Virus record (IMG/VR): IMGVR_UViG_3300005980_000007
Span: 1-40,797 of that record
Reading direction: 5' to 3' (one strand)
DNA length: 40,797 nt
Origin: a virus
Taxonomy: Duplodnaviria > Caudoviricetes
In this document: piece after piece, positions 100-40,691 of the stretch
How positions within the stretch are numbered: position 1 is the first letter of the stretch
Layout: every line of letters starts with the position of its first letter
The notes under the pieces: generated by a model
What the model was told of the DNA's origin: nothing
Seen by the model: the letters and a program-made list of their open reading frames with translations, nothing else
Databases searched by the model: none
Program-made: the position numbers and the translations under genes

Positions 100-113
100 A
101 GGCATTCTACTCG
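100..113. repeat. att core, pgsA-side junction (AGGCATTCTACTCG)
   Basis: Exact copy at 40678..40691; similarity extends imperfectly to AG[A/T]AGGCATTCTACTCG[G/C]TG. Confidence 0.93.
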
Positions 114-134
114 GTGATGAGGCCGGAAAGCCCC

Positions 135-163
135 ATTCTATGGGCATTCGCTGGGCATGTCTA
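135..163 (-). promoter_or_regulatory. Predicted sigma70 promoter in the phage att arm, facing outwards to pgsA
   Basis: Minus strand TAGACA (163..158), 17-nt spacer, TAGAAT (140..135); each hexamer is 5/6 to consensus. Confidence 0.65.
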
Positions 164-207
164 ACCGAGTTTCTAACAGTGTTCTAACACGAGTCTAACA
201 CTCTGAC
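160..207. repeat. TCTAAC repeat array, putative integrase arm-type / recombination accessory sites
   Basis: TCTAAC at 160, 172, 183, 194 and TCTGAC at 202; the 18-mer TCTAACAGTGTTCTAACA (172..189) recurs at 40584..40601. Confidence 0.7.
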
Positions 208-404
208 AGCTCCCATGGGACCAACTTACAGAGGCGTGCAGGCCTGCGACAAGGACCCCAGGCGCACCCATGCGATAAGGCTCAGGCGCGCTGTGAGCTG
301 GCGAGCAGCTAACGAGAGGGGCCACGGGGGGAACTGGCGGCGTAGAACAGTTGAGGTGGTCATTCAGATTTTTCTGTCAGATTCTCAAAGGGACCATCAA
401 GAGG

Positions 405-593
405 TCATTCAGCACACCCGCCAGTCACTATAACGCAGACCACGTTACCGAGGCTTTCCACTAATGGCCCTCCTTTAGTAAGCCCGAGAGTCACTAAGAG
501 CAACGCAAGGAATCTGTAGGTGGCCCGGTGCGTCGCCAGAGCCTTAACGACAGCCACAAAGGTCTGCCAGCGGGTAGTCATTACTGTGATCAT
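405..593 (-). CDS. gp19.5-like small hydrophobic protein
   Basis: Last gene, downstream of a phage promoter; ATYRFLALLLVTLG segment resembles T7-family gp19.5; GGAGG RBS upstream. Confidence 0.7.
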   Translation of the reverse strand: MITVMTTRWQTFVAVVKALATHRATYRFLALLLVTLGLTKGGPLVESLGNVVCVIVTGGCAE

Positions 594-700
594 GCTTCAG
601 CCTCCTTTGAGCTGGTTAAAGAGAAGGTGGTTGATGGTGATAGCCACCACCCAAACAGGAGGTCTCAGAGGCATCTCTAAGAAGTAACTTTAAGCCTCCC

Positions 701-723
701 TATGGTTATAGTGGGTGCTTTTG
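701..723 (-). promoter_or_regulatory. Phage RNAP promoter (phiOR-like) CAAAAGCACCCACTATA|ACCATA
   Basis: Member of a nine-copy 23-bp motif; lies between terminase and gp19.5 as T7 phiOR does. Confidence 0.85.
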
Positions 724-774
724 GAGCCCTTGCAGGACGTGGCCTGTAGCCCTGGTCAAATAGGCACCAAACCG

Positions 775-799
775 AAAATAAGGGACCCGAAGGCCCCTT
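775..799 (-). terminator. Hairpin terminator after terminase gene
   Basis: Minus strand AAGGGGCC-TTCG-GGTCCCTT followed by ATTTT, just after the gp19 stop. Confidence 0.6.
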
Positions 800-806
800 T
801 AAGTAG

Positions 807-2558
807 TCACCACCCCATATAGTTGGTGGTCGTTCCGTCTGTTTCGTACTGCATCATCACGTCACCAATCATCATCTGCCGGTGATCCTCGAATCCCACA
901 AGCGGGTCTTCCATGTGATGCATTAGGTACTCTTCCAGCATCTCCGAGGCTCCCGCCTCAGAATCCTTCTCCATGGCCTCTGTGAAGAACTGAACGCCGA
1001 TTGCCAGGGCATCGAGTCGATCATCATGGGCAAGTGAGCCCCGGTCCTTGGTGATCCTGGAGAGCTGATAGAAGCCGCTGTACTTGATGTCAGTCGTACC
1101 GTCGATGTTCAGCGCAGTCTCGTAGTCCCGCGCAATGACATCCTCGGAGACCACCAGCTTGTGGCTACCCAGTACAGGCTCCAGAACGTCACAGATGCGT
1201 AGCTCTTTCTGTCCCTTTGACTTGACCTCAGTGACTGCACAACGGTGTGTACGGGTCATCACAGGGCTGAACAGCTTCACGTACATACCATCACCGAAGT
1301 TACCCTCAATGATCACTTCGTTGACCTTGAAGCGCTTGCCGATGTCTGCCAGGGCCTGCAAGGTCTTGTCATCGTAGCCACCACGGAACCCGCCCCAGTC
1401 CATCAGGAAGATGTAGCCGTTGAGCATGTAGAGGACGGCGTAGCCAGTCTCATCCTTACCGCGACCGCTCGGGTCGATCACAAGTATCTTCGCGGAGTAC
1501 GGTGCAGACGCTTGGCCTACAGTCTCGTAGCGGTGGAAGCGATCCCCCTTGAGGCCCACGTTAGGCAAGCCCTTGGCTTCGTTGTTACCGTTCGGCAACC
1601 ACTGCAAGGTCGTAGGGGCTGTATCGAGGCTGAAGCGCCCCACGATGAAGTCACGCAGTTTCAGAGGGTACTTCTCGGCATCGCTCAGGTTCGGGTTAAG
1701 CATGAACTGAAGAGCGAAGCCACCCTTTCCGTATGACAGCTCACGCTCACGCAAGTCAGTGTCATCGAATCGAACAGGGTCTGTAGGTTTCCAGTAAAGG
1801 GTCCCGTCAGCTTCCAGCTCGTTCGCAATCATTGGTGCCAAACGATGGCCGTAGCTCTCACGGTCTTTCTGGTCTTTCGGGTATCTCGCAGGCCAGATGG
1901 TGGTCACATAGCCACGGTTTTCCAGCTCACGATAAAGAGTCATCTCAGTTTGGGGAGTACCCAAGTAGATGATGGTAGATGCTTCACCCGGCTTCAGGAT
2001 CGCATCGAATTCCTTCACGAGTTCGCCCAGGTGATCCCTTGCGGACTGCGTAGCGGAGTTGTTCGGAACCTCAACGTCATCCGCGATAAGGATGTCAGCA
2101 CGGGAGCCCGCCAGTTGGCCGGTGATACCCACAGACTTCACAGAGGGCGAGTGGTCTGGCTTGGCCGGTCCCACATCGAAACTCAAGGAGCTATCCCGCT
2201 GCCCAGTCCCTGTCTTCAGTTCTGCAAGGAACGGTAGGAGGTCGATGATTCTCTTGATGAAAATAGAGTTGGCGTCTGCCCGTTCCTTCGAGGCCGACAC
2301 GATGAGGAACTTGAGCTGTGGGTTGTTCCACAACTTCCAGACCACAAAGGCACACGTAATGAAGGACTTGCCGATGCCCCGGAAGGCTTGCAGGATGAAC
2401 CTTCGCTGCTTTCCGTCACTTAGGGTACGTGCCATGTCGATCTGGCACTTGGTAGGTTTAGGGAGGTTTAGAGCGCGCCACAGGACAAACAAAAAGGCCA
2501 CAAAGGACCTTTTCATTAACGCTATGTCCTGCTCGCCAGTGCGAACAGTTCGGGTCAC
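807..2558 (-). CDS. gp19: Terminase large subunit (gp19)
   Basis: Walker A AFRGIGKS, Walker B ILIADDVE, nuclease motifs [12 protein letters not shown] and HDDRLDALA; GTG start overlaps upstream stop (GTGA). Confidence 0.97.
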
Positions 2559-2683
2559 TCAGGATCACCCGGCCACTTCACCTGTTTAGCGCGCTCTCGA
2601 ATCTGTGCCAATGCGGCTTGTTCTGCACCATATTTAGCTTGTTCTTTTTTCTTGTCGCGGCACTCCTTGAGATTAATGACCAT
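2555..2683 (-). CDS. Small 42-aa protein ([42 protein letters not shown]), not in the ORF track
   Basis: Fills the gap exactly: ATG directly after the i-spanin stop (TGAATG) and stop overlapping the terminase start (GTGA). Confidence 0.6.
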
Positions 2684-3136
2684 TCATTTACTCCTTTGTA
2701 GTTCTTTAATTGCTCCTTGCAGGCCCGTTACTTGGGCGTCACATCGCTGGGCTTGCTCGATAAGGAATCGAGAAGTGTCTTCTGATAAGTCGGCGTAACC
2801 ATCAGGGACGGGTCTACCTGCACTTGTGACTGAACGCACGGTTGCATCGGCAAGTTTGACCCGCAGGCTGATACCGTCATTACGCAACCTACCAATAACC
2901 CCGTCAGCCAAAGCCGACTGGTCTTTAAGGTACGCTTGCCATTGCAAAGAAATATCCGCCAAAGCCTTTTGAGATAGTTCACGTTCTTCCTCCTGTTTCT
3001 GCCTGTAGACTAAAGCTGTCTCAGCGTCCTCTTTAAGGTGTTTCTGGTCAGAGTCGTGATAGCCCTTGAAGTAAATCCCAAGGGCTACCAGACAGGCACA
3101 CAGAAGCCCCAAGAGAACCTTGGTAAGGGTTGTCAT
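2684..3136 (-). CDS. gp18.5: Rz-like i-spanin (gp18.5)
   Basis: N-terminal TM helix, coiled-coil body, C-terminal DAQVTGLQ, position after gp18. Confidence 0.9.
   Translation of the reverse strand: MTTLTKVLLGLLCACLVALGIYFKGYHDSDQKHLKEDAETALVYRQKQEEERELSQKALADISLQWQAYLKDQSALADGVIGRLRNDGISLRVKLADATVRSVTSAGRPVPDGYADLSEDTSRFLIEQAQRCDAQVTGLQGAIKELQRSK
2728..2982 (-). CDS. gp18.7: Rz1-like o-spanin lipoprotein (gp18.7) nested in gp18.5; start uncertain
   Basis: Alternate frame within Rz; hydrophobic signal with lipobox VSAC; VDPSLMVTP resembles T7 gp18.7. Confidence 0.85.
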   Translation of the reverse strand: MNYLKRLWRIFLCNGKRTLKTSRLWLTGLLVGCVMTVSACGSNLPMQPCVQSQVQVDPSLMVTPTYQKTLLDSLSSKPSDVTPK

Positions 3137-3148
3137 GGTTGTGGCTCC

Positions 3149-3406
3149 TTAGTGTTGAGTTGCTGGACCGTAAAGTTCTTCGTCGGTCAACTCAGGGACT
3201 TCCGCAAGCGCGGACGCCAAGTCACCCAGTAGGGACTCATCAGGTTGCAACTTAGCGATAGTGAACTTGTGACGGTCGAGATACTTGCCGATGGCGTTGT
3301 ATAGCTGAGGGGTTCGTAGCTCGGGACTCTTCAAGTCGCGCAAAAGATTCTTACCGGTCTCTGTGTCGATTGCCTCAAGTAGTTGTTCAAGAATAGATTG
3401 CGACAT
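3149..3406 (-). CDS. gp18: Terminase small subunit (gp18)
   Basis: RTPQLYNAIGKYLDRHKFTIAKLQPD motif; start moved to ATG 3406 overlapping the holin stop (TAATG). Confidence 0.93.
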   Translation of the reverse strand: MSQSILEQLLEAIDTETGKNLLRDLKSPELRTPQLYNAIGKYLDRHKFTIAKLQPDESLLGDLASALAEVPELTDEELYGPATQH

Positions 3407-3609
3407 TAACCCTCCTGTTTTGTTTGGACCCCCTTCACAGTCTTGTAGATCAAGACGGCGCATTGAGTTAGCGAGTAGATAATGGCCGCTGCATAGAACC
3501 AGTCGGACATTGTTAAACCAGCAAAACGGCTTGCTACATCAGCACCAGCCGCAGCTACAACAGGAGTGGCGCGAACCACCCCTTGTGTAAAATCAATTTC
3601 AAGACTCAT
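3406..3609 (-). CDS. gp17.5: Class II holin (gp17.5)
   Basis: 67 aa, MSLEIDF..VVRATPVV..GLTMSDWFYAAAIIY; follows the tail fibre. Confidence 0.92.
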   Translation of the reverse strand: MSLEIDFTQGVVRATPVVAAAGADVASRFAGLTMSDWFYAAAIIYSLTQCAVLIYKTVKGVQTKQEG

Positions 3610-3620: not shown

Positions 3621-5393
3621 TTAGGCAATGGTAAGTTTGAAGATGAACACACGCCGAATCCCATACTGATTATTAGGTTTGCCAGCCTTCACAGTGATGC
3701 GCCGCCCGCCTTCAGTAAGGGTAAACAGCATTGCCCCACCGCTATCAAACTGCACGTTGTGTTCTTCGGTTGCAGACTCACCAAAAGGAATACAGTTGGT
3801 TGTCGAATAAAACTTGGCGCCGCCGTAAATCTCGAACATGTAGAAGTCACCGGACTGTAAAGGCTCGCGGAGATAAAACTGAGAACCCGGCGCCCCTTGG
3901 TCGCCTACACCGCCAACTGTGTCCACACCACGCTCCCATATTACCGAGGGGGTGTTACGCAGGCGCGTGCCAGGAGTGACGCGACTAAGCGCTCCATAAA
4001 GACTTCCTCCAGTCATCCATTCGGCGCGGATGTCCGCATTAGGCGGGATGGTAGCTTGAGGCAGGCTAATAGAGCCTCCCACGCTAATATCGGTGGCCGT
4101 GTTGACCTTGCCGTTAGGCTCCACGGTCATACCCACTGTGGTTCGACCGGCGCGGAGCCGGATTACCTGATCAATGCCCGCGTAGATTACTCCGCGATTC
4201 CCGCTCGGACCGTCAAACCATAAGTGAGCGTTCCCCGAGTCAGCAGGAGACACAGAGAAGAACGAGCCAGAGTTTGCGGTGATGGTGCCGGATACAGCAA
4301 AGTTGCCGTAGCCTGACAGGCTCGTCAGGGCAGTGCCTAAGTTGTCCCGGACGTACATCACACCGTTGTTCGAGTAATTGAAATTCATGTACTTTTGGTC
4401 GGTCAGCGCACTGCCTTCCTGCTGAATGAACAAGGAGGTGTGGATGTGATGAGGACCTTTGAAGATCGTCTTCACGCCCTGCACGAACTCAATAGTTCCC
4501 ATGAACTCGTTGGCGTTACCCAGCTTGTTTGCTTCACTTGCTGCACGATTAGCCTCAAGCGCCGCACGATAGGCATCATCGTAGGACAGACTTGCAGAGT
4601 GGGCGCTTGCAGATGCACTGGCAGCGCTCTTGCGGGAGTAGTGCAGGGACGAGTAGAGACCTGTTTCCACGAGTTGGCCTTCCGGCATCATAGCGTAAGC
4701 CCTGGAGAGGCTCGCGTTGGCCACTGCGATGTCCTTAGAATCCTTAGCGGCACCTTGAGATGCAGCAGCCTGGCCCGCAGCGGCCTGAGAGGCCGTAGCG
4801 TGTCTATCGGATTCGTTTGCCATCTGCTCAGAACGTGCGGACGAGTTGGTGGAGTTTTCCGCATGAAACGCCGCCGCGTTAGCCATCAGCTCAGAGCGGT
4901 TAGCTTGGTTCAACGCCGAGGCGCCCCATGCTTTATCTTGCCGCAAGGTAACAGCGTCACCATCCAACACGGCATCTGCAAGGTTCACAAGGCGCCGACC
5001 ACGGGCATCCAAATCACCATCGTTGTTCACCGCAATGGTGTCCGCAGTCAGGTCACGGGCTTCTTCAGCAATGTGCAGCGATTGAACCTGTGAGGTGTTC
5101 AAATCGTAGGCACGAAGAATCGACCCATCGGCAAAGTCAACGAGGCGATCAGTTGCCGAAGTAACCCGGCGAATCTCTATGCTTGTGAATTGATCACCCG
5201 GCCCCCACGCCTTTGTAGTCGTGATATTGGTACGGGAAGTAAACCGGTAGTCGGAGTTAAGCGTGAGGGTCTGCCGTGTTTTACCAATAAGGGTCACGGC
5301 GATGAACTTACGAGCCAAATACTCGAATGGAATTGTAAAGTCCTTTTGCGCACCATTGAGGGGATACGTAAGGACTGTCTTTGGAGCGGCCAT
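3621..5393 (-). CDS. gp17: Tail fibre (gp17), 590 aa
   Basis: T7 gp17 anchor (FTIPFEYLARKFIAVTLIG..RLVDFADGSILRAYDLN), Ala-rich shaft, beta-rich distal part; start reassigned to ATG 5393 after AAGGAGG. Confidence 0.95.
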   Translation of the reverse strand: MAAPKTVLTYPLNGAQKDFTIPFEYLARKFIAVTLIGKTRQTLTLNSDYRFTSRTNITTTKAWGPGDQFTSIEIRRVTSATDRLVDFADGSILRAYDLNTSQVQSLHIAEEARDLTADTIAVNNDGDLDARGRRLVNLADAVLDGDAVTLRQDKAWGASALNQANRSELMANAAAFHAENSTNSSARSEQMANESDRHATASQAAAGQAAASQGAAKDSKDIAVANASLSRAYAMMPEGQLVETGLYSSLHYSRKSAASASASAHSASLSYDDAYRAALEANRAASEANKLGNANEFMGTIEFVQGVKTIFKGPHHIHTSLFIQQEGSALTDQKYMNFNYSNNGVMYVRDNLGTALTSLSGYGNFAVSGTITANSGSFFSVSPADSGNAHLWFDGPSGNRGVIYAGIDQVIRLRAGRTTVGMTVEPNGKVNTATDISVGGSISLPQATIPPNADIRAEWMTGGSLYGALSRVTPGTRLRNTPSVIWERGVDTVGGVGDQGAPGSQFYLREPLQSGDFYMFEIYGGAKFYSTTNCIPFGESATEEHNVQFDSGGAMLFTLTEGGRRITVKAGKPNNQYGIRRVFIFKLTIA

Positions 5394-5443
5394 TAAGTCC
5401 TCCTTGTGAGTTATGAATATGAGAAAGCAGACTCGTGGTGACA

Positions 5444-5466
5444 TCTGCTTATAGTGGGGGCTTTTA
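5444..5466 (-). promoter_or_regulatory. Phage RNAP promoter (phi17-like) TAAAAGCCCCCACTATA|AGCAGA
   Basis: Consensus motif directly upstream of the tail fibre gene. Confidence 0.85.
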
Positions 5467-8400
5467 GCGAATCTCTACGCCCTGCCCTTCCATCATCATG
5501 AGCAAGAGCTTTTGAGACACAGGGTCATTCGGCACGAGTCCACGAAGGCCATTGAATACACCAGTCATGTATTCCTGATCGGCTCTACGGGAGTCCGTAC
5601 CAGCAGCGCCCATAGAGTTGAAACCCATCTGATACCCGCTTGCCACAGTCCCAATTGCTGGAACCTGTTCGGATACCCGGCCAAGGAACCCAGTGAACCC
5701 TTCAGACTTCGTGGGGGAGTACTTCATGGCACCTTGAGGGCGTTGTTCTTTGGGGCCCCGTGGGAGAATCGAAGAGCGCACAGCCGCCGCCTGATCGAAG
5801 CCCAAAGGCGCCGCTACGATGTTCACCAGCCCCAAAGGCGCACCGATGTGTGAGCTACGGGACAAAGCCGCATAGGCCAACATCTTGGGGTCCAGGGACT
5901 GCTGTAGGAACTTCTCACGCTGGTCTTTTGGCATCCCCGCTGCTTGGCTGTACTTCATCGCTACGTAGCCCGAAACGGCCAGTCCCGTAGAGAGAACCGC
6001 CTGCATGGTCTGGTCGATTGCACGACCGTTCTTCGTTGCATCGTGGTAGCCACGGATGAGCCGGGAGTTGACTGAACGCATGGTGAAGTTCTTGAACTGC
6101 ATCGCCATCTTGACGCCCGCACCGTATGCCTCGGTGTCTACCGAAGACAGCTTGTGTGGCCGTAGGATCGTCTCATCTGCAATCTTGTCTCCCATACGCC
6201 ACAGGTCCATGGTCCGAGGGTCACGCTGAAAGGCTGCTCTATCGGTGATCTTGTAGGACCCGTCAGGCTGCTTCTTCACGTAGGTCTTAATCAGGTCTTT
6301 CATTCCCGCGAACTGCTCGGGGGTGATAGACATAGACTTCAGGCGGGTGTCCTCAAAGAGCTTCGAGGCCCGACCGTCCACCACATGATTCACGAAGTCC
6401 GAGAGGACCCCGGAACGCCCTGCATCCGCGATGTAGTTAGACGACTCTGTGAGGAACTTGGTGAACGGTGATCGAGCTGACAGCTCCTGTGTGGTGTACT
6501 TCACAGAGCCCACAACCTGGGCAAGCATAGGGTTTGTTTCTGCCTGCTCTCGGAGACGCTGGATGATGTCCTGGCGGGTTGGCCGAATGTGGTTATCCAG
6601 CTCCCGACCGAAGACCATAGAGTGCATGTCTGCAAGGTCCTTTGCCTTGATCTTGGAGCCCCAGGCGGTCATCTCCTTGAGCAGCGGGACGCCCTTCAGG
6701 AGCATCCGTGTGTGCCCTTTAGTCACCATTGCGGCAACCTCAGTTATTGACTGCACGCCCATGTAGGCGTTCTTGGCGAAGAAGCTCATGTCTGCCAAGG
6801 CACGGGAAGCGGTTGCAAGGGCGCCTTCGGGGTCTCTTCGGGCACGGCCTGTCAGAATATTGAGCGCATCCTGCAACGCCTTCACTTCCTGCGACGTTCC
6901 CTTCCCCTTCTGGACCCCTGCAATCTGAGCCTTGAGTTCCTTCGTAGTTTTCCCCGTGGCCCCCATGATCCCAATGTCACCGTTCACACGGCGGTCATAG
7001 CTTGGGGTGATGCGCGCCAGGTCAAACTCACGCAGGTCATTCACAGAGAACTGTGAGCCATCACTAAGGGGCACCGCCATGTCCGAATCGAACAGGTGAC
7101 GGCCTTCGAGGAAATTGTTGTTCTCCACGCCGACCAGACCTTCGGCGCTATTGTCGATGAGCGTTGCACGGTCGAACTGGTCCGAGTGGCTAATGCCGTA
7201 TGCCTTGTTGCTGGCATACAGTTCAACAGCGGCGGGAAGGTCCTTGTCTTCCAGTACGCGCCCTTCGGCAATCGCAAGCTCCTTCAGATGAGTGTCCACC
7301 CGAGTCTTTACGTGAGGCCGTGCAGCGTAGGAAGACAACCACGACTCCTTAATGGCATCGCGCAGACCATCCGCCCCACCGAAGCGTTGGATGTTCAGGT
7401 TCTTCGCGGCTGAGCTGTAGACGTTCGGGATGTACGAGCCAGCGTGACGAGTCCCCGAAAGAACCGCTCGGGCGTTCCTGTTGCCGAACTGGGCAGGCGC
7501 TGCAAGGTATTCAGCCTTACGGTCGTAGTGAGCCTTAACGGTGCCCATCAGCTTCTTCTCACCGGCTGTGAGCTGCGCCGCCTTGGAACCCGAAAGGTCC
7601 TCAGTGGCCTCAGCGACACGCCTGAAAGCACGCTCAATGTGAGCTTGCCGACCGCCGTCAGTCATCGCATAGCTTGGGTCCTTGATGGCCTCAAGAACTT
7701 CATCGGAGATCTTATTGTAGGTCACATGGTCCTGCCCCTTGATGCGCTCAATGATGTCCGAGGCGGTAGCCCCAAACTTACCGTTAGAGCCGCTGATGGT
7801 CCCCGTAGGCGACCGGAATAGCTGATTGCCGATAGCGAGAATCTCAGGGTTCTCCGAGCGGTTCAGCGTGTAGCCAATCTCGGTGAATCCACCCATCGTC
7901 ACACCACGGGCTGCACGGTCGTCAGGCATCACCTCCATGGCGTCCTGTAGGGTCTTAGGGTTCAGTGGATTGTCAGCAGACAGGATTGAACCGTCCTGCA
8001 AGCGCACTGCCCCAGGCTCGTTCGGGTGGTCGACATAGCTCACCCCAAAGGCTTCCTTGGGTTCCTCGCCGGCCAGCCACGGGAAGCGTGAAGGATCGTC
8101 CTGACCCAACTGGCGAGCGGTCTCACGGGCCTCCAAGCGAATGCTCGGACCAGCGAAGTCGTTCAGGTCGGGTTCCATATCAGGATGCAGGTCAAAGCGC
8201 TCATTCGGTAAGGCGGACTCACCGTGTCGCGCAAGGATCGATTCAAGGTCAGCGTCTGGAACATCTAAGCGGGGAGCCTCACGCGGTGCAGCCCTCAGCG
8301 CCTTATCAAACAGAGCAGTAGCCCCGGCACCGAACAATGCGCCACCTACGAGAGCCGTCCCGTAATGGCCCTCAATGCCTGTGATGTTTTCACGTAGACC

Positions 8401-9513
8401 CTCAGAGGCCACAGCAGCAGCCCCCGAGTACATCGCACCTTGAGCAACCCGAGAGATGAGACGCGCCCCGGTTGCCCCTGGAATAGGCGTGTAGGTCAGC
8501 GGGTCCAGACCGGCCCCCGCAAACCCACCGACGATCTGAGCGCCTGTCCCTGCGTTCCCAATACGTTGTTCATACGCCATGTTCTCCTTTGCCATCGCAA
8601 TGGCGTTCGGGAGATTGGCCCGTTTGCCCTTGGCGTAGTCCTGCACGAAGCTGAAGTATTGAGGGTCCACACCCTCCTTACGAATCATGTCGTAATCGTC
8701 AGCGGTCCACTGAGAGGTATCGCTTGGGCTCACCCAGCCCAGCGGGTCATGGTCTTCCTGTGTCGCGTACCGGAACAGAGAGGCCATCGGTGAGGTAGCC
8801 AGGGAGGCCGCTGTGGCATCACCTGTGCCCTCGAAGGTGCCCTTTGCGGGCTTCCCAATGTGGTTCTCAAGGGTAATGAAGTCCTGCTGAGTCTGAGGGG
8901 CTGTGCCACCTTCCAGATTCATATTGCCCAACTGAGGGAGGTCCTGACCCACACGGACCTTAGAGCCTGCCGTCACACCCCGAGTAGCATCCTCAAAGCT
9001 GACGGCTTGGGCCTTTGGGTTGATGCCGGGATTGGTCACTCCTTGGGCATCGAACCATTGACGGGAAGGCGAATCACCGGACACGTCCAGCAGCTTGCGC
9101 ATGTAGTTCTGGCCCTCGGGACTGATCTTGGTGAAGTCACCTTGATCCAGTGCGGCCAACTGAGGGGAGCCCAAACGGCCCTGGCCTTGGTTGTATGCCA
9201 AAGCGGCCTTCAGCAAGTCACCCTGATAGGCGCCTTTGAGGTCCTTGAGGTGACGGCCAATCGCTGGGACTGCCTTCTGTGGGTCCATACGGTCTTCAGG
9301 GGTCATCAGACCGTAAGCCTTACCAGTCAGCTCTGTGAACTGTCCGAGACCCAAAGGGCCTGTAGGGGACTTGGCGTTGTTGTTAAAGCTCGACTCGTTG
9401 TAGATGAGCTTGTGCATGAACTCGTAGGGGATTTCATTACGGTCAGCCTCTTGTCGAATCATGGCGTCGTAGGGTGTCCCCTTGGCCTTCACAGATTCAT
9501 AGTCGTTACTCAT
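5464..9513 (-). CDS. gp16: Internal virion protein D (gp16) with N-terminal lytic transglycosylase
   Basis: 1349 aa; SLT motifs ESSFN, GLGQF, AYNQG; synteny. Confidence 0.95.
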   Translation of the reverse strand: MSNDYESVKAKGTPYDAMIRQEADRNEIPYEFMHKLIYNESSFNNNAKSPTGPLGLGQFTELTGKAYGLMTPEDRMDPQKAVPAIGRHLKDLKGAYQGDLLKAALAYNQGQGRLGSPQLAALDQGDFTKISPEGQNYMRKLLDVSGDSPSRQWFDAQGVTNPGINPKAQAVSFEDATRGVTAGSKVRVGQDLPQLGNMNLEGGTAPQTQQDFITLENHIGKPAKGTFEGTGDATAASLATSPMASLFRYATQEDHDPLGWVSPSDTSQWTADDYDMIRKEGVDPQYFSFVQDYAKGKRANLPNAIAMAKENMAYEQRIGNAGTGAQIVGGFAGAGLDPLTYTPIPGATGARLISRVAQGAMYSGAAAVASEGLRENITGIEGHYGTALVGGALFGAGATALFDKALRAAPREAPRLDVPDADLESILARHGESALPNERFDLHPDMEPDLNDFAGPSIRLEARETARQLGQDDPSRFPWLAGEEPKEAFGVSYVDHPNEPGAVRLQDGSILSADNPLNPKTLQDAMEVMPDDRAARGVTMGGFTEIGYTLNRSENPEILAIGNQLFRSPTGTISGSNGKFGATASDIIERIKGQDHVTYNKISDEVLEAIKDPSYAMTDGGRQAHIERAFRRVAEATEDLSGSKAAQLTAGEKKLMGTVKAHYDRKAEYLAAPAQFGNRNARAVLSGTRHAGSYIPNVYSSAAKNLNIQRFGGADGLRDAIKESWLSSYAARPHVKTRVDTHLKELAIAEGRVLEDKDLPAAVELYASNKAYGISHSDQFDRATLIDNSAEGLVGVENNNFLEGRHLFDSDMAVPLSDGSQFSVNDLREFDLARITPSYDRRVNGDIGIMGATGKTTKELKAQIAGVQKGKGTSQEVKALQDALNILTGRARRDPEGALATASRALADMSFFAKNAYMGVQSITEVAAMVTKGHTRMLLKGVPLLKEMTAWGSKIKAKDLADMHSMVFGRELDNHIRPTRQDIIQRLREQAETNPMLAQVVGSVKYTTQELSARSPFTKFLTESSNYIADAGRSGVLSDFVNHVVDGRASKLFEDTRLKSMSITPEQFAGMKDLIKTYVKKQPDGSYKITDRAAFQRDPRTMDLWRMGDKIADETILRPHKLSSVDTEAYGAGVKMAMQFKNFTMRSVNSRLIRGYHDATKNGRAIDQTMQAVLSTGLAVSGYVAMKYSQAAGMPKDQREKFLQQSLDPKMLAYAALSRSSHIGAPLGLVNIVAAPLGFDQAAAVRSSILPRGPKEQRPQGAMKYSPTKSEGFTGFLGRVSEQVPAIGTVASGYQMGFNSMGAAGTDSRRADQEYMTGVFNGLRGLVPNDPVSQKLLLMMMEGQGVEIR

Positions 9514-9533
9514 AGAGGTCTCCTTTATTCAGG

Positions 9534-12304: not shown

Positions 12305-12316
12305 AGCGCCGCCCTC

Positions 12317-28288: not shown

Positions 28289-28290
28289 GG

Positions 28291-29087: not shown

Positions 29088-29089
29088 AC

Positions 29090-30495: not shown

Positions 30496-30530
30496 AGAAG
30501 TCCTCCTTGATATTTTACGTATTGGGTTAA

Positions 30531-31798: not shown

Positions 31799-31938
31799 TC
31801 TGCGCTCTCCCAGTTATGGCGGGCTTGGCGCTGCACTTTATTCAACTTGCCGCGACGGACCCGTACAGCTTCCATCTCGTCATCAGTGCGGCGTTTGGAA
31901 GTGCGGGCGTTGCGTTCAATTGTCTTAGTGGATTGCAT
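31795..31938 (-). CDS. gp1.1: gp1.1-like small basic protein
   Basis: RRGKLNKVQR..WE; start reassigned to ATG 31938 (AGGAG RBS), downstream of tandem promoters. Confidence 0.75.
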   Translation of the reverse strand: MQSTKTIERNARTSKRRTDDEMEAVRVRRGKLNKVQRQARHNWESAE

Positions 31939-31974
31939 AGCGGAAAGAACTCCTAAAATGTTGGGAAGGTTGGT

Positions 31975-31997
31975 TGTGCTTTTAGTGGGTGTTTTAA
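31975..31997 (-). promoter_or_regulatory. Phage RNAP promoter (phi1.1B-like) TTAAAACACCCACTAAA|AGCACA
   Basis: Consensus motif, tandem with 32056..32078. Confidence 0.85.
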
Positions 31998-32010
31998 ATC
32001 GCACAGACAA

Positions 32011-32084: not shown

Positions 32085-34778
32085 CTATGCAAAAGCAAAC
32101 TGGCTCTCAAGGATCTTGGTGATGTCAAGGGTCCCCTTCTGTGGAATCGGCGGCATCTTTTCAAGCTGGCTCTCGTGCAGTTGCTCCATGAACTGCTGAC
32201 GGAAGTCCTCCAAGACATCGTTCTCTGTGTACGTCTCAACCATCGCTTCGCGCACAGCCCTGAACATCGCTCCGGCCTTCGCTGGGATGGTCCCGAAGCT
32301 GTCGTGAATCAACGCGAAGAACTCCACGCCGTAGCACTCGGAAGCCTTAACGACTGTCTTGCGCAGGTGGGACCCATCCTGACTGTGTACGAAGTTCGGA
32401 GAGATACCCGATTCCTGTTTGGCCCCGTCGATTTCGTTGGAATCCCGAACATTGATCGTTGAGCGCAAGCGAGCAGCACCCAGGAAGATCAGGTCGACCC
32501 GGCGTTGCACAGGCACCATGTATTCCTGCCACACAGGGAACCCGTCAGGCGTCACCCAGTACACAGGCATGCAAGGCTTCAGGATTTCGGGCTCGGGGTT
32601 CTTCTTGGTCTTCTTTGTGGCGGTCACTTCAGTAGCCAGCAGCTTTGCAGCCTTTTGGAGCCACAACATGGCCTCAACGGCCTTAACTACAACCAAGCTC
32701 ACAGAATCCCAAATGAGGTTCGCCATATACCGGGCACATTGCTGTGCATCAGGGAACCACTGTTCACCGTCACCAGCGTCAAGAGCTGGCTGGATGATGT
32801 CTTCACGTACTTGGTCGGTGAACCCAAAAGCCTTGGAGCCATACGCCAGAGTCATTACGGAACGCTTAGTCACCTTCCGGCTGATCCCGTAGCCCATCCA
32901 ACCAGCGGCCATTGAGCGAGTACCCAACACGCGGCGTTCTGTAATCTCACCGGTCTTCTTGTTCGTCACCACTTCGGTGCTGTCTTCCGCGCCTTCAAGC
33001 ATGTCCCGTTTGACCGCCTCAATGACTTCCTCAGCAACCAAGCGGTAGATGTCCTGAACCTCATCCGAAGGCAACAAGTTCACAGCACGACCACCCCGCT
33101 CGTCTCTGAGCATCGCGGAGAAGTGCTGAATACCAGAGCAAGACCCATCGAATGCGATAGGCAGTGCCGACTCCCACAGCTCACCGTGTTCAACCACACC
33201 GGCCCACTCGAAGCAGAACGCCAGGAAGCAGAAAGGGCTATCCATCTTGGTCCACTCAGGCTGGCCCAGTGGGTCCCGAGCAATCTCAAGGATCAGCTCT
33301 TCGTTGTCCTCTACCCACTTCGTGCGCTGTCCAAAGTCGACCTTATCGACCCCTGCACAGTTGGCCCCGTGGATCTTCAGCCACTCAATACCGTCCTTGC
33401 CGACAGGCTCCGCAATGGAAGCCATCAGGAGGCCCTTGGTCAGGTCGTTGCCTTGTGGATTGAACGATGGGATGGCGTAAACACGGCCCCGCCAGTCGAG
33501 GTTGTACGGGAAGTAAATGGCCTCGTATTCAGAGAACTTTGTGGCCTGCTCTAAGATGAACTCATAGGACAGACGGCGGCTCACTCGGGCCCGGTCCTTG
33601 CGGTACACAGTCGAAGCGGCTTTCTTCCAGGCCTTGAGGACCTCGGGGTCTTCGTCAATGTTCGCAGGCTTGACCGGTAAGGCTTCCTTGTCGGCTGTAG
33701 GAAACTTGTCGATTGGAACATGCTTCCACTGCATCACCTCCTTGGCGACTTCGAGGACCTTTGCGTTCACCTTCCAAGCGGACGCCTGGGCGATGTTCAC
33801 GGCCTTGTAGACCTCGGGCATCGACACGTCCTTGTAGCGCTGTAGAGCCTTCTTTGAGCGGACCCGAATCAACGGCACAGGCTTACGCCCCTTCGCCCAG
33901 TAGCCACCACCAATCATTCCGGTCCACTCGCGCGGCGGTACGATCATTGGTTGGTAACGCGGAGTAATCTCGGCCAGCGCATATGCACGATTGCATAGCT
34001 TTTCGGCCCACTCAGGGGTTAGGTAGATGAACTCGCCGTCTAACTTTGCGTTGCCTGCGTGTTCCCGCTTCATCTCGACCAACTGAGTCGACTCAATGAG
34101 CAGCTCCAGGAGCTTCACGCCAATATGAAAGGTGACGTAGTTGTCCAGTGAGTCCCAGGAGGTCCACTTAGTGGTCAGCTCATTAGCGGCCATCATGTGA
34201 GCCTCGACCTTCTCCATGAACTTAACTTTGTAGGTGTGGCCGTTGCGCTTGTTGAGTGCTGGGCGGATACGCTTGTTGAAGTGTTCCGCCTCCTGCTCGC
34301 GGATACGGCCAAATCGGGCCTCTTCCTCAACCGCCTTACCGAGGGATACTGAAACCTGCTGAACACTCAGCGGCCCCTTTTTGGCGACCATATTAAGAAC
34401 TGTCTTGACGGTAATTGCCGCGACGTTCTCAGCCTTGACCAATTGCAGATAAGGCAGGCCAATATTCTTTCGCTTCACCTTATTCACTTGATGCTCAACC
34501 CAGTCTTCGAAAGCCTTAGCCATCAGGGGAATCAGTGAGGCCAGCACAGGCTTAGCTGTGGCGTTGTCCGCGAACTCATTACGATCAATAGAACGATCAA
34601 GGACTTTCTTAAAGTGATCTTCACCAAGCGTGTAGGCTTCATGCTCAAGACTTAACTGAGCCGCCGCAAGGTCAGGGCCGTAGATATTAGAAAGGGTCTC
34701 ATAGGCCCATGAAGAAACATCAGTGATTGCGCTAAAGTCGTGCTTCGTTAGTTGTATGGTTTGGCTTTCTGCGGACAC
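32085..34778 (-). CDS. gp1: Single-subunit DNA-directed RNA polymerase (gp1)
   Basis: DWRGRVY, FDGSCSGIQHF, RKVTKRSVMTLAYG, PNFVHSQDGSHL, IHDSF, C-terminal FAFA; catalytic motifs intact. Confidence 0.99.
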   Translation of the reverse strand: MSAESQTIQLTKHDFSAITDVSSWAYETLSNIYGPDLAAAQLSLEHEAYTLGEDHFKKVLDRSIDRNEFADNATAKPVLASLIPLMAKAFEDWVEHQVNKVKRKNIGLPYLQLVKAENVAAITVKTVLNMVAKKGPLSVQQVSVSLGKAVEEEARFGRIREQEAEHFNKRIRPALNKRNGHTYKVKFMEKVEAHMMAANELTTKWTSWDSLDNYVTFHIGVKLLELLIESTQLVEMKREHAGNAKLDGEFIYLTPEWAEKLCNRAYALAEITPRYQPMIVPPREWTGMIGGGYWAKGRKPVPLIRVRSKKALQRYKDVSMPEVYKAVNIAQASAWKVNAKVLEVAKEVMQWKHVPIDKFPTADKEALPVKPANIDEDPEVLKAWKKAASTVYRKDRARVSRRLSYEFILEQATKFSEYEAIYFPYNLDWRGRVYAIPSFNPQGNDLTKGLLMASIAEPVGKDGIEWLKIHGANCAGVDKVDFGQRTKWVEDNEELILEIARDPLGQPEWTKMDSPFCFLAFCFEWAGVVEHGELWESALPIAFDGSCSGIQHFSAMLRDERGGRAVNLLPSDEVQDIYRLVAEEVIEAVKRDMLEGAEDSTEVVTNKKTGEITERRVLGTRSMAAGWMGYGISRKVTKRSVMTLAYGSKAFGFTDQVREDIIQPALDAGDGEQWFPDAQQCARYMANLIWDSVSLVVVKAVEAMLWLQKAAKLLATEVTATKKTKKNPEPEILKPCMPVYWVTPDGFPVWQEYMVPVQRRVDLIFLGAARLRSTINVRDSNEIDGAKQESGISPNFVHSQDGSHLRKTVVKASECYGVEFFALIHDSFGTIPAKAGAMFRAVREAMVETYTENDVLEDFRQQFMEQLHESQLEKMPPIPQKGTLDITKILESQFAFA

Positions 34779-34963: not shown

Positions 34964-35233
34964 TTACACGGAAGCAACCTCTATCCGACCAGTTATTTCG
35001 CTTACTAAGTAGATAAACTCCTTGACCTCACCATCTGTGGAAGCGAAGCGTGTCTCTTGGGTGATTGTCAGGAACTCACTATTGAGCGCGTAACGAAGTT
35101 CGGACACCCACTGGCCGCAGGGACCTCGGCCTAACGCGAACTCGCAGCGCTCATGGTCATAAGTCATTTTTCCATCCTCGCAAACACGTGGAACCTGGGA
35201 GTAGAAGCGGATTCGGCTGATGGGCTTCTTCAT
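34964..35233 (-). CDS. Hypothetical early protein
   Basis: ATGA overlap with the Bro-N gene stop; fills the gap. Confidence 0.7.
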   Translation of the reverse strand: MKKPISRIRFYSQVPRVCEDGKMTYDHERCEFALGRGPCGQWVSELRYALNSEFLTITQETRFASTDGEVKEFIYLVSEITGRIEVASV

Positions 35234-36093
35234 TTCGTAAAATGCTCATTCAGGGCTTTGTCGAGCGCAGACAGATACCCGGCTTGGTTCATGTGTTTCT
35301 TTAAGAACTCCAGTGGGAACCGTGCCCATGGGCGCTTGGCTGACCCTTGCGACAGCTCTGTCTGGAGCTTCCGATGGTCCGTGGCATCCCACAGGTCCAA
35401 TAAGGCAGCTTCGAGTTTCACCGTGACAGTCGGCTTCAGCTTGTCCGCTACAGGAACGCTCAGCCCCTTCAGGTCACACAGCTTGATAAGTAGCTTGCGG
35501 TCGAAGTGACGCCATACGAACTCGGTGTGTACTTCAGGGCACAGGTAGGTGCTTACAGATGCTGGGGCACTCTCAGACACAAGAAGAGGGCGAGCCATCA
35601 GGATTTCAAGCAGAGATTTCAGCTCCCCGACTTCGCCTCTGAGGGTCTTCAGCTCATCCATGACGCCCTGTGCGATTGGGTTCGTGGAATCCTCAGCGTT
35701 GTACTTACCGGTCTTGCGGATGGTCGGTAGGACTTCTTCAGTAACCCACTTACGGAATGGCAGAGTTGCCGGTGATTTGGCGCGCAAGAGCATTCCGTAC
35801 AGCTCAGGCTCTGTGAACATGACTGTGTTTTTGCGGATTCGCTTGGCGTTCTCATCCATGGGCAGGGCAATGGTGGAACAATCTTCTACCAGTGCTTCCA
35901 ACGAGCGACCGTCCTTCAGCTTCTGCCGAGCATGGTAGATAGAGCTTTTCGGGTCCTTTAGGCCAGCGCATCGCGCCACCTGAGTCCCTAAGAACAACAG
36001 ATCGTGGTCAGGGTGCCCGGTCAGTACGTCCAGCTCGATCCCCATGAAGTTGCGCTTTTCGAATTGCATTACGGCAGGCGTAGTAGTAGCCAT
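35230..36093 (-). CDS. Bro-N domain protein (antirepressor-like)
   Basis: FLGTQVARCAG, MFTEPELYGMLLRAKSP, FRKWVTEEVLPTIRKTGKY, then a coiled coil. Confidence 0.9.
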   Translation of the reverse strand: MATTTPAVMQFEKRNFMGIELDVLTGHPDHDLLFLGTQVARCAGLKDPKSSIYHARQKLKDGRSLEALVEDCSTIALPMDENAKRIRKNTVMFTEPELYGMLLRAKSPATLPFRKWVTEEVLPTIRKTGKYNAEDSTNPIAQGVMDELKTLRGEVGELKSLLEILMARPLLVSESAPASVSTYLCPEVHTEFVWRHFDRKLLIKLCDLKGLSVPVADKLKPTVTVKLEAALLDLWDATDHRKLQTELSQGSAKRPWARFPLEFLKKHMNQAGYLSALDKALNEHFTK

Positions 36094-38104: not shown

Positions 38105-38209
38105 TACTCACAAAAAGCGTATATCTATTCAAAGCCTTACGGCATGTGACGCCTTGATGTGACGTAATCTACGCACAAAAAGCGCATACGTCAACGCACA
38201 AAAAGCGTA
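38105..38209. promoter_or_regulatory. Three 17-bp operator-like sites, consensus TACGC-ACAAAAA-GCGTA (38105..38121, 38170..38186, 38193..38209)
   Basis: TACTCACAAAAAGCGTA, TACGCACAAAAAGCGCA, AACGCACAAAAAGCGTA; each is one mismatch from consensus, with dyad arms. Confidence 0.8.
38166..38194 (-). promoter_or_regulatory. Host sigma70 early promoter
   Basis: TTGACG (38194..38189), 17-nt spacer, TAGATT (38171..38166), upstream of the first early gene. Confidence 0.75.
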
Positions 38210-38225
38210 GATGTGGCGGAAAACG

Positions 38226-38263
38226 AAAAAAACCCGGCGAATCCTTTATGGACTCAACCGGGC
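38226..38263 (-). terminator. Intrinsic terminator closing the integrase operon
   Basis: CCCGG-TTGAGTCC-ATAAA-GGATTCG-CCGGG followed by TTTTTTT. Confidence 0.85.
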
Positions 38264-38278
38264 TTCAGTGTGGCGCTG

Positions 38279-38614
38279 TTAGTAAATAGGATTCTGCCTA
38301 AGCAGCGTCATTAGGGCGCGGCGCGTTTCAATGTGAGAGACCTTCAAGGACATCGCAAGGCAAAGCCAAGACCCAAAGTATATGCAGTCCTGACTTCGCC
38401 CGTAGGCATCCTTATACTGACCGTGATGGGCTACAGCCGTACTGCCAGCAAACCAAAAACCAGTAGGCTTTTCGACAAGCACGCCAGCCTCGGATAGCTC
38501 AACCAATGCAGCCCGAAAAGTCCGTATCAAGTCAGCGTGAGACCTGGGGCGAGTTGTCACCGGCCCCATCTGGAGAATCTCATAGGTGGACGTGAAGAGC
38601 TTTGGTGATTCCAT
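38279..38614 (-). CDS. 111-aa protein with a possible winged-helix N-terminus
   Basis: TAGGA RBS; YEILQMGPVTT..TFRAALVELSEAGVLVEKPTGFW pattern; fold call is tentative. Confidence 0.6.
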   Translation of the reverse strand: MESPKLFTSTYEILQMGPVTTRPRSHADLIRTFRAALVELSEAGVLVEKPTGFWFAGSTAVAHHGQYKDAYGRSQDCIYFGSWLCLAMSLKVSHIETRRALMTLLRQNPIY

Positions 38615-38617
38615 GAA

Positions 38618-38728
38618 TCAAAATCCTAATAGAGCCGTCACCTTTGGGAACGCTTGGACAAACTTGATGATCCCGTAGAGAACGGCGGCACTGAGGACCC
38701 ATGCGGCGACTGTTAACGCTCGGTCCAT
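38618..38728 (-). CDS. 36-aa membrane peptide (MDRALTVAAWVLSAAVLYGIIKFVQAFPKVTALLGF), not in the ORF track
   Basis: AAGGA RBS; 3-nt gaps to both neighbours; one hydrophobic helix. Confidence 0.65.
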   Translation of the reverse strand: MDRALTVAAWVLSAAVLYGIIKFVQAFPKVTALLGF

Positions 38729-38731
38729 GGG

Positions 38732-39127
38732 TCAATCCTTTGTGTTGAGTGTGAATGCTTGGGCTGCACCGCTCAAGACGTACCAGCAGTTACGGTTAAG
38801 GCCGGACTCTTTCGTGATCTTCACGCCTGTAATGCCATCAGCGCCTTGAGCGTATGCGGCCACCTTCAAGTCGATAAGCACACTGGCTTCCGTAGGTGAT
38901 TCCTCCACAAAGCTCCTATGGCACCGTCCAGCAGACACAGTGGTCAGTGGTTCAGCACCAGCAGGAAGAGCTTCGTAGACCTTCACTGTACGCACTGCCT
39001 CCCGCTGGTCCTTTAGGCTCGCGTAAGACTGCTCATTGCCGACTTGGAGATTCGAAGAGTGACTACCACAGCCAGCCAGGAGCAAAAGACCAAGCGCACC
39101 CGCAACACCAACATAACCACAGCGCAT
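38732..39127 (-). CDS. RcsF-like lipoprotein, 131 aa
   Basis: Start reassigned to ATG 39127 (AGGGAG RBS); signal peptide with lipobox LAGC; mature pattern VKVYE..VSAGRC..AYAQGADGI..NCW..GAAQAF. Confidence 0.7.
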   Translation of the reverse strand: MRCGYVGVAGALGLLLLAGCGSHSSNLQVGNEQSYASLKDQREAVRTVKVYEALPAGAEPLTTVSAGRCHRSFVEESPTEASVLIDLKVAAYAQGADGITGVKITKESGLNRNCWYVLSGAAQAFTLNTKD

Positions 39128-39178
39128 CACATGAAGCTCCCTTTTAGAAAGCCGCACATGATACATCAGCAAGAGCCT

Positions 39179-40630
39179 TTAACTATCAGCCAAGGCCGAC
39201 TTGAGGGCCTCGCCTAACCTGCTCACCTGTACCGCACTGCCTGCCCCGTAGAGGTCGAACGTAATGGACCCTGAGCTATGTCCTAAGATTTCCTGAGCGG
39301 TCCCCAATGGGACTTCAGCCGCCTTTAAGGCACCTGCAAGGTGGTGCCTCAATGAGTGGAAGGACTGGCCTGTCTTCGTCTCTATTTTCAAGACTTCGCG
39401 TATACGCTGGTTAAGTGCCGCTGTGAAAGCTGGCGCGGTGTGCAGGAACAGACGGCCGTTAGCCGCCTCTGCGTAAGCCTTAAGAGCCTCTAAGTCGACC
39501 CCGAACGCATCCACCAAGGGCACCTTACGGGCGCTGAATTTGTTCTTCAGGGTCTTTCCGCCGTTGGTGTTGATGTCCATCACCAGCACACCATCAAGAC
39601 CCTTCAATATGTCATCTGAGGTCAGTTGCTGGATCTCCCCGACACGAGCCCCGGTGATCACTCCAAGAGTCAGCGCCCAACGGTGCCATGAGTCCCCAGG
39701 TAGGCTATTAGCGTGAGCCATAAGTGCCTGTGCCTGATCCCGCGTGAAGGCTGTGCGCTCGCTCTCAGTCCCTTTCAGTATCTGGAGCTTCTTGCAGAAG
39801 GCCTGTTTGATATGGCCGTTATCAACTGCCCAACTGAGGATCGTAGTTAGCTGCGTGATGATCTTGTTAACCGTCACGGCCTTCCGGCCCTCTTTCAGGC
39901 TCTCACGGGCCGCGATCAGATCAGCCCTTGAGTGTGTCGCCATATCTTTATCACCCAGGACACCGATCAGAGTTTCACAGCACGTCTTCACGCTTCTCAT
40001 GCTGGACTCTTTGAGGTCTTCCCGGCGTTCATCCATGTACAGAGCTGCAAGAGCTTCAAAGGTCACGGCAGGTCCGCCTTGAGGCTTCGTGGCGGTGGTG
40101 GCGGTAGACACTGTTTGAGTCAGGGACTCACTAACGGGCCCCACAGAGTCAAGCTCTTCGATAAGCCCCCTGATAGGACCCAAGAAGCCATCAGCTCTCC
40201 GCTCACCGGCAGTCATTAGGCGCCTCCCAAAGTCCACAGCCAGAGTCTGCGGGACGCTCAGTGGCTCAGTGGCTGCTATCTCGTTCAGGTCTGCCAGGAC
40301 ATCCGTATATATCCGTGCAGGCCCGCCCAGCTCATCCCACACAGAACGTGTCTGTATGACTGACTCCGCGATGTCTCTAAGGTTGGCTTTAAGCTCATCC
40401 CATGATGCATCGGGTCTATCGAGGTGGAAGGCTCTAAGGGTCTTTAGGAGGTGTGCAGCGGTAGCCAATGCGGTTTGCCTGTGTGTCGTCTTGAGGGAGA
40501 GCGTTAGGGACTGTTTGGAGCCCATAGGACGGACTCGGAGAGTGTATCGACCCTCCCTCCTGTACAGATAAGGACAGGCAAGGTCTAACAGTGTTCTAAC
40601 AGTTTGGCTCTTTTGGATGGTGGTTAGCAT
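39179..40630 (-). CDS. int: Tyrosine integrase (483 aa from ATG 40630; frame open up to TTG 40675)
   Basis: TGARVGEI (R), LKNKFSARKVP (K), FHSLRH (H-x-x-R), LGHS (H), DLYG (Y); adjacent to att. Confidence 0.95.
   Translation of the reverse strand: MLTTIQKSQTVRTLLDLACPYLYRREGRYTLRVRPMGSKQSLTLSLKTTHRQTALATAAHLLKTLRAFHLDRPDASWDELKANLRDIAESVIQTRSVWDELGGPARIYTDVLADLNEIAATEPLSVPQTLAVDFGRRLMTAGERRADGFLGPIRGLIEELDSVGPVSESLTQTVSTATTATKPQGGPAVTFEALAALYMDERREDLKESSMRSVKTCCETLIGVLGDKDMATHSRADLIAARESLKEGRKAVTVNKIITQLTTILSWAVDNGHIKQAFCKKLQILKGTESERTAFTRDQAQALMAHANSLPGDSWHRWALTLGVITGARVGEIQQLTSDDILKGLDGVLVMDINTNGGKTLKNKFSARKVPLVDAFGVDLEALKAYAEAANGRLFLHTAPAFTAALNQRIREVLKIETKTGQSFHSLRHHLAGALKAAEVPLGTAQEILGHSSGSITFDLYGAGSAVQVSRLGEALKSALADS
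40584..40601. repeat. Second copy of TCTAACAGTGTTCTAACA, putative arm-type site within the 5' end of int
   Basis: Identical to 172..189, same orientation. Confidence 0.7.
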
Positions 40631-40677
40631 GGTCAAACCCCTGGATTCATTGGGTAAGACCTCATGTGTCACCAAGT

Positions 40678-40691
40678 AGGCATTCTACTCG
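40678..40691. repeat. att core, uvrC-side junction; contains the uvrC stop codon
   Basis: Identical to 100..113. Confidence 0.93.

Follow-up and report, generated by a model that had tools for sequence, protein, structure and literature searches.

A Fildesvirus-group prophage of the T7 lineage at the uvrC stop codon of Pseudomonas, with a candidate Rha-like repressor

Temperate T7-like phages are well established (PMC10134795, PMC9145550). The closest described relative of the element analyzed here, vB_PaeM-G11 (OQ622254; hereafter G11), emerged from Pseudomonas sp. D3 upon UV treatment and forms plaques on strain G11; in the chromosome, it is flanked by a 14-bp repeat, and the genus Fildesvirus was proposed for it in 2023 (PMC10142737). 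The maintenance of lysogeny in T7-like phages has so far only been proposed: the model in print is MarR-based, and no stable lysogens were obtained in the work describing it, which also reports T7-like prophages in 78 Pseudomonas genomes (PMC10134795). Here we analyze IMG/VR record IMGVR_UViG_3300005980_000007, a single 40,797-base viral contig from a metagenome (hereafter the window), in which a complete, integrated T7-type phage had been predicted from the sequence. We conclude, with reasonable though not high confidence, that it holds an intact T7-lineage prophage of the Fildesvirus group at the stop codon of Pseudomonas uvrC, which is likely silenced by a 111-amino-acid (aa) Rha-like protein predicted to act on three repeats. 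As the original prediction acknowledged, integrase-bearing T7-like phages were known before. They have been described as Fildesvirus (PMC10142737) and from the 78 genomes (PMC10134795), and the temperate lifestyle has already been published for the sister phage G11; the present analysis adds a new attachment site and, for the lysogeny switch of core-T7-lineage phages, a concrete candidate that can be tested.

The window shows ~87% whole-genome similarity to G11, with 37,278 bases aligned at 95% identity (a blastn estimate, not a VIRIDIC value). With thresholds of at least 70% intergenomic similarity for the genus Fildesvirus and at least 95% for a species, the two therefore belong to the same genus and to different species. 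The RNA polymerases (RNAPs) are 99.7-99.8% identical, the terminases 99.3%, and most core proteins 97-100%; the next RNAP records reach 66%. Both genomes have the same gene order, with an integrase, a lipoprotein and a 111-aa open reading frame (ORF) at the left end, a 14-bp attachment-site (att) duplication and the same layout of promoter and repeats. Their differences are concentrated in modules, namely the integrase (49% identity), the att core (CGTATTCTGTCAGA in G11), the 111-aa protein (38%, with different repeats), the extra Bro-N gene of the window and the tail-fiber tip (79%). The tail-fiber gene (3621-5444) departs from that of G11 at about 4300-4890, with flanking genes that are 98-99% identical, a swap of a host-range module. 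In PMC10142737, the 111-aa ORF of G11 is listed as hypothetical, the passages on it name no repressor, and those on induction show no uninduced control.

The original prediction credited the window with the entire T7 gene set. This holds for the essential genes, every one of which is present at full length, and for 28 of the 37 T7 genes tested, which have syntenic full homologues (genes 1.1 and 5.5, together with an Rz1-like frame embedded in Rz, were detected by means other than the synteny comparison), but not for genes 0.3, 0.7, 1.2, 1.7, 4.5 and 5.9, for which no homologues were found in the window. All phage genes lie on the minus strand, in the order integrase, short early block, RNAP, replication, virion and lysis, and all nine phage-promoter-like sites are on this coding strand, with none on the other. 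The assignment to the core T7 lineage stands: a single-subunit RNAP (57% identical to that of T7 and 67% to that of gh-1) is placed early within the T7 gene order, gp2 and the gp3.5 amidase are present, and gp5 matches T7 gp5 over its full length, with a thioredoxin-binding insert that also aligns apart from a short deletion. In a quick tree of 25 rows, with open deep forks and long outgroup branches, the RNAP groups with T7, K1F and gh-1, apart from phiKMV and Pasto (34% identical to the window RNAP). Among Studiervirinae, the subfamily under which G11 is filed in its own record, it belongs to a clade of 11 rows (99) whose members are integrated or carry an integrase; no claim on temperate versus lytic ancestry is made from this tree. 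Pasto, a phage of Agrobacterium/Rhizobium, is itself reportedly a temperate T7-like phage, as works citing Boeckman 2022 have it. Overall, the sequence supports a temperate, Studiervirinae-type member of the core T7 lineage.

The two ends of the window are described below with reference to run X1, a possible source of the window, and to G153, one of the surveyed Pseudomonas genomes (G and L numbers other than G11 denote genomes and loci, respectively).

1..74, minus strand: 5' end of host pgsA (MNIPNLITVLRV...), which follows uvrC in 28 of 30 Pseudomonas loci
100..113: att core at the pgsA-side junction, spanned by an X1 contig (84-376)
40678..40691: att core at the uvrC-side junction, holding the uvrC stop codon and spanned by an X1 contig (35941-40707); 10 bp in G153
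40692..40797, minus strand: 3' end of host uvrC, with a flank match to Pseudomonas genomes

The 14-bp core, AGGCATTCTACTCG, has no third copy in the window, and the flanks are those originally predicted: the right one encodes the C-terminus of uvrC, with the TAG within the core, and the left one encodes the start of pgsA. We take these genes to be uvrC and pgsA because the peptides are recognizable and the flanks agree with the gacA-uvrC-pgsA region, which is conserved. The 106-bp flank has a match in 294 of 301 Pseudomonas genomes (98% at best), and the uvrC-pgsA interval was surveyed in the 30 loci closest to the flank out of these 294 genomes. In 28 of the 30, pgsA starts 44-45 nucleotides past the uvrC end motif, and two carry insertions at the identical base of the uvrC stop codon, both decayed: G153 has a 4.6-kb remnant with pieces of integrase, RNAP, holin and terminase, and G030 a truncated integrase (61% identical) together with a gp19.5 homologue. 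The crossover is narrowed by G153, where the duplication comprises just 10 bp (TAGAATGCCT). In G030 (L162 1342-4820), the uvrC remnant is followed by pgsA and gp19.5 in inverted orientation, which suggests a local inversion during decay. Our literature search found no published account of uvrC-pgsA as an integrase attachment site; the uvrC stop codon is a new attachment site for a Fildesvirus-group prophage.

Because the window is a metagenomic viral contig with host flanks of just ~100 bp each, one has to ask whether a free T7-like phage was joined to uvrC-pgsA during assembly via the shared 14-mer. Such an artefact is very improbable and largely refuted, given that both junctions are crossed in X1 by separate contigs from a 31-mer-based assembly at the depth of the phage body (18.2 at the uvrC junction, attR, and 16.6 at the pgsA junction, attL, against 14-18 for the body), that two isolate genomes carry related integrases at the identical base, and that arm-like repeats flank the core. 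The empty site (attB) is seen at loose ends in the same run, on a contig at a depth of ~96 (an estimate from bin sums), with host contigs at 136. Contig depth does not give the share of cells, but these values are consistent with a quiet prophage carried by a minority of the hosts.

The equal depth of junctions and body (16.6-18.3) would also be expected of a recently domesticated, non-inducible cryptic prophage with genes that have not yet eroded; likewise, the phage site (attP) is absent among the X1 rows listed, both other elements at the uvrC site are decayed, and no excisionase was identified in the window. Several observations speak against this explanation, which we consider improbable: all essential genes are of full length, the near-identical G11 backbone makes virions, and in run X2, from another study, an integration module that is 98.6% identical probably has its attP. 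The integrase contig of X2 (20 differences in 1,468 bases) extends past the core by 15 letters that are not host sequence, and two phage-left contigs begin precisely at the core, contig ends that probably reflect coexisting attP and attL, as a 31-mer assembly would give. Runs X7-X24, which had small word shares, do not enter into this evidence. Since the sister phage G11, with most of its core proteins nearly identical, is released by UV and forms plaques, and since X2 points to attP, the prophage of the window is probably still inducible, as originally proposed.

Integration and excision would involve the following features.

39179..40630, minus strand: tyrosine integrase of 483 aa (PF00589; catalytic residues)
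135..163, minus strand: predicted sigma70 promoter TAGACA-17-TAGAAT, with a like element at the same end in G11, G153, G361 and G335
160..200: four TCTAAC repeats, likely integrase arm-type sites
40584..40601: two TCTAAC repeats, likely arm-type sites; 18 bp identical to 172-189
356..386, minus strand: conserved motif (386-364) found ahead of the terminal repeat in gh-1, T7 and 3MF5; left virion end predicted near 356

The integrase is intact, as the first description had it: it likely starts at the ATG at 40630, inside a 498-aa frame, matches PF00589 and retains all six catalytic residues (R344, K377, H440, R443, H466 and Y476 in the numbering of the 498-aa frame), which are invariant across 20 aligned homologues except for the H443+1 context. 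A search with the single sequence retrieved no genome or viral-contig loci, whereas an alignment as the query did. The family is present in 46 of 401 Pseudomonas genomes (a tally that counts the unpublished G376), mostly without a T7-like RNAP, and adjoins protein-gene ends in the 30 loci listed, one of them uvrC. Hence integration at the 3' end of a protein gene, which had been singled out as a peculiarity, is confirmed but typical of this family; no tRNA adjoins the close relatives of the integrase. Pseudomonas islands with the same integrase family and no T7 RNAP (L005-L015, L202-L231) often go on with a Bro-N, an RcsF-like lipoprotein or an immunoglobulin (Ig)-domain gene, and are possibly satellites of such T7-like phages.

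From its position and direction, the 163-135 promoter should face host pgsA in the prophage and the integrase gene across attP. Its -35 box overlaps the innermost TCTAAC repeat, so the integrase could limit its own promoter; TCTAAC-like repeats adjoin the integrase in 3MF5 as well, and elements with other integrases have different repeats. The gacA-uvrC-pgsA genes are described as a conserved operon with uvrC-pgsA junction transcripts, in which, in P. syringae, pgsA levels persist despite an upstream insertion (bioRxiv 10.1101/774711), and the site would therefore need an outward phage promoter or one in the core region. The predicted left virion end lies ~245 bases before attP, so that integration probably requires circularization via the terminal repeats.

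The most informative part of the window, which the original prediction missed, is a candidate repressor/operator module at 38107-38614. The module and its surroundings are listed in the direction of transcription.

39158..39163, minus strand: TATCAT hexamer just past the integrase stop, putative -10 box for the lipoprotein-repressor unit
38732..39127, minus strand: RcsF-like lipoprotein, 96% identical to ORF2 of G11
38618..38728, minus strand: 36-aa hydrophobic ORF, also in L063, L088, L092 and G335
38279..38614, minus strand: 111-aa Rha-like protein, candidate immunity repressor by profile, fold and distribution
38224..38266, minus strand: intrinsic terminator that separates the early promoter from the integration/immunity genes (-23.6 kcal/mol, z -5.6; stability equaled by 0 of 200 shuffles)
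38195..38211, minus strand: candidate operator 1, abutting the -35 box of the early promoter
38166..38194, minus strand: sigma70 early promoter TTGACG-17-TAGATT, with candidate operator 2 (38172-38188) filling the spacer
38107..38123, minus strand: candidate operator 3, adjoining a phage promoter at ~38100; top-ranked by a matrix from which the window was left out

The three 17-bp repeats thus lie against the -35 box, within the spacer and ~40 bp downstream of the early promoter. Gene, terminator and promoter follow in the same order in nine elements, and the repeats are evident in eight of these and unclear in the deleted G232; the TATCAT hexamer is exact in six of nine elements and variant in three. 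The lipoprotein could possibly contribute to superinfection exclusion or have an envelope role. With a matrix built from seven relatives, the three sites of the window rank 1-3 on both strands of the 40.8 kb (16.9, 12.9 and 12.7 bits; next-best site, 11.0), and in all eight elements the repeats score highest with the leave-one-out matrix of the element's own protein group. The sigma70 consensus match alone is no evidence because the scan of 31.5-40.8 kb yielded 2 sites against 5.5 expected; similarly, an operator search with three mismatches was equaled by 6 of 100 shuffles, so that the case for the operators leans on their clustering and on the leave-out matrix. As for known types of switches, MarR_2 (PF12802) had no match in the genome at E up to 1 (the control was positive in 14 of 14 genomes), the 54 window ORFs gave no MarR-like hit in Pfam or PHROG, and HTH_3 (cI-type) had no match in the genome. 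LexA was considered as the trigger of induction and rejected, the best box having 10 mismatches of 20 in the window and 7 in G11.

The 111-aa protein falls into three groups, namely, A (window and G335, 75% identical), B (G11, L063, L065 and L088, 53-72%) and C (L092 and G361, 63%), with 35-47% identity between groups. These groups ignore the backbone, the window RNAP being 99.8% identical to that of G11, 92.5% to that of G361 and 71% to that of G335. The gene was found in only one of 50,697 phage records (G11) and in six of 401 Pseudomonas genomes (three prophages, strong; three islands, weak), and hidden Markov model (HMM) searches did not find it in T7, gh-1 or other lytic relatives; the alignment search retrieved no viral contigs and three metagenome loci, one of which (L109) is identical to the window sequence. 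The AlphaFold model (pLDDT 85) has as its closest viral folds in BFVD a "regulatory protein" and antirepressor entries (TM 0.54-0.61, probability 1.0), and the HH profile compared with 20 Pfam Rha domains gives 69% (E 4e-5), whereas none of 40 column shuffles exceeded 3%. The PF09669 cut-off was reached by none of the nine group members or two distant homologues, and the protein is thus best described as Rha-like and not as a Pfam member. A likeness to PadR/MarR winged helices was rejected as too weak (TM about 0.23), Foldseek against the PDB gave no match at E up to 0.001 (best Z in VIA-align, 4.1) and hence no solved relative, the ESM Atlas gave no usable lead, and PADLOC matched 0 of 9 proteins. 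The distant homologues are encoded in islands (L191 1477-3307, L192 724-2882, L193), of which L191 has a T7 gp2.5-type single-stranded DNA-binding protein and L192 a KilA-N gene; L192 and L193 carry the clade's phage-promoter motif just downstream, and all three resemble T7-promoter islands.

Layout, distribution and co-variation suggest that the 111-aa protein is the repressor. Apart from the absence of attP among the X1 rows listed and of an identified excisionase, several points weigh against this interpretation. The protein matches no Pfam or PHROG family at threshold, and Rha proteins are usually N-terminal domains of proteins labeled as antirepressors; neither a LexA box nor a peptidase domain that could explain induction is found in the window. 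Gene and repeats adjoin, so that linkage alone can yield the co-variation, groups A and C have just two members each, and the matrix preference of L065 is marginal (10.8 against 9.8 bits). Furthermore, the Warsawvirus phages 3MF5 and phTUNSm have single 17-bit sites near the early promoter and no detectable Rha-like gene. The operator-like sites map to L002 (644-660) and L003 (near 39890), close to the early promoter in 3MF5/phTUNSm and ahead of the integrase gene in phTUNSm.

These Warsawvirus matches are what one would expect if the prophage, while real and inducible, were kept silent by a host DNA-binding protein at the repeats, or by the terminator and weak expression alone, with the Rha-like gene as an accessory regulator or antirepressor; the antirepressor labels of the fold neighbors and the occurrence of the distant homologues in non-phage islands fit this as well. 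We consider it rather unlikely because sister phages with different versions of the protein also have different repeat sequences, because the gene is located ahead of the terminator together with the integrase, outside the lytic operon that contains the Bro-N antirepressor, and because the lytic relatives lack the gene. A search of literature listings found no account of a Rha-like repressor in T7-like phages, on which subscription papers and the G11 supplements may bear.

If the 111-aa protein is the repressor, the prophage cycle could run as follows. The integrase would recombine within the ~10 bp shared with G153, leaving uvrC unchanged; integration would detach the integrase gene from the phage promoter, which would then face host pgsA, and would bring the gene under gacA-uvrC read-through. 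The unit of lipoprotein, small ORF and repressor would be transcribed from its own promoter up to the terminator, and repressor on operators 1-3 would block the sigma70 promoter; with this promoter blocked, no phage RNAP would be made and the nine phage promoters would stay off. Upon loss of repression, RNAP would be made and would amplify its own synthesis from the promoters at ~38100 and 34949; the phage would then excise, replicate in the T7 manner and package its DNA from the end near 356. Entry of T7-type DNA is driven by transcription, as established for T7; even when repressed, the early promoter would have to permit full entry and circularization, which can now be tested.

The remaining genes of the window are grouped in blocks.

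35230..36093, minus strand: Bro-N antirepressor-like gene, by homology; absent from G11
32085..34778, minus strand: phage RNAP, by homology, with a phage promoter ahead, near 34949
20795..32010, minus strand: DNA metabolism block (ligase, deoxynucleoside monophosphate kinase, gp2, gp2.5, gp3, gp3.5, nucleotidyltransferase, gp4, gp5, gp5.5/5.7, gp6)
3621..20648, minus strand: virion genes 6.5-17 by homology (portal, scaffold, capsid, Ig-domain ORF, tail tubes, internal proteins, tail fiber)
405..3609, minus strand: holin, small terminase, Rz with the embedded Rz1-like frame, large terminase and gp19.5-like gene, by homology

After the capsid stop codon, an unannotated 74-aa Ig-like ORF (15852-16112; 99% identical in G11) recalls the gp10B frameshift extension of T7; G11 virions are described as showing an unexplained band of 43-55 kDa (PMC10142737). 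A 20-bp direct repeat with a spacing of 30 bases lies within the gp7.3-like gene (19962-20011). An RNAP of this kind is encoded in five of the 401 Pseudomonas genomes, of which G335 and G361 contain complete prophages, G232 a deleted one, G135 a Warsawvirus-like one and G153 the uvrC remnant. In G335 and G361, the site is the 3' end of a gene that we take to be earP, ahead of what is presumably efp. The slot between gp19.5 and the motif preceding the terminal repeat is empty in the window, holds related accessory ORFs in G153 (L129-L130) and G11 (40022-40546) and other ORFs in G335 and G232, and is thus a cargo slot.

We consider it an even call whether a broader generalization holds, namely, that Pseudomonas phages of the core T7 lineage have a switch of their own, unrelated to cI, MarR and ribbon-helix-helix proteins, with a stand-alone Rha-fold repressor, three operators and a single early promoter; that immunity types, of which there are at least three, are exchanged without regard to integrase and backbone; and that integration also acts as a promoter exchange, through which the host gene downstream (pgsA, efp) acquires the promoter of the integrase. 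With the culturable, inducible G11 and natural variants of repressor and operators, the switch can be tested using a single small gene and its 110-bp promoter. If true, this would provide a function for a Rha-type domain and would bear on whether the lytic T7 relatives lost such a module. In practical terms, phages that are 65-80% identical to biocontrol Ghunaviruses can be temperate, with no repressor recognizable by annotation tools.

Compared with the Rha family (PF09669), the 111-aa protein aligns in the helix "H..v.R.i", the "Y.D..gR" hairpin and the closing helices and has a similar predicted fold, but is a stand-alone domain below the Pfam threshold and a proposed primary repressor. The lytic phages gh-1 and phiPSA2 (Ghunavirus) and T7 share with the window the gene order, gp2, gp3.5, a thioredoxin-binding gp5 and the motif preceding the terminal repeat, but lack the integrase, the 111-aa gene and the repeat cluster (best single scores, 8.6 and 11.8 bits). 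The Warsawvirus phages vB_PsyP_3MF5 and phTUNSm/v and the G135 prophage are Studiervirinae with the same integrase family (40-41%) and similar TCTAAC repeats, but their integrase lies at the right end in the opposite orientation, the RNAP is only 59-63% identical, and no Rha-like gene is detected by tblastn or HMM. Pseudomonas phage LUZ100 and Pasto are likewise T7-like phages with a tyrosine integrase, a phage promoter before the RNAP and proposed repression of the RNAP; they are distant from T7 and encode a MarR-like regulator co-transcribed with a short integrase beside tRNA-Leu (PMC10134795). By contrast, the window, which has no MarR match, combines a 483-aa integrase of another family and a protein-gene target with candidate operators at a sigma70 promoter.

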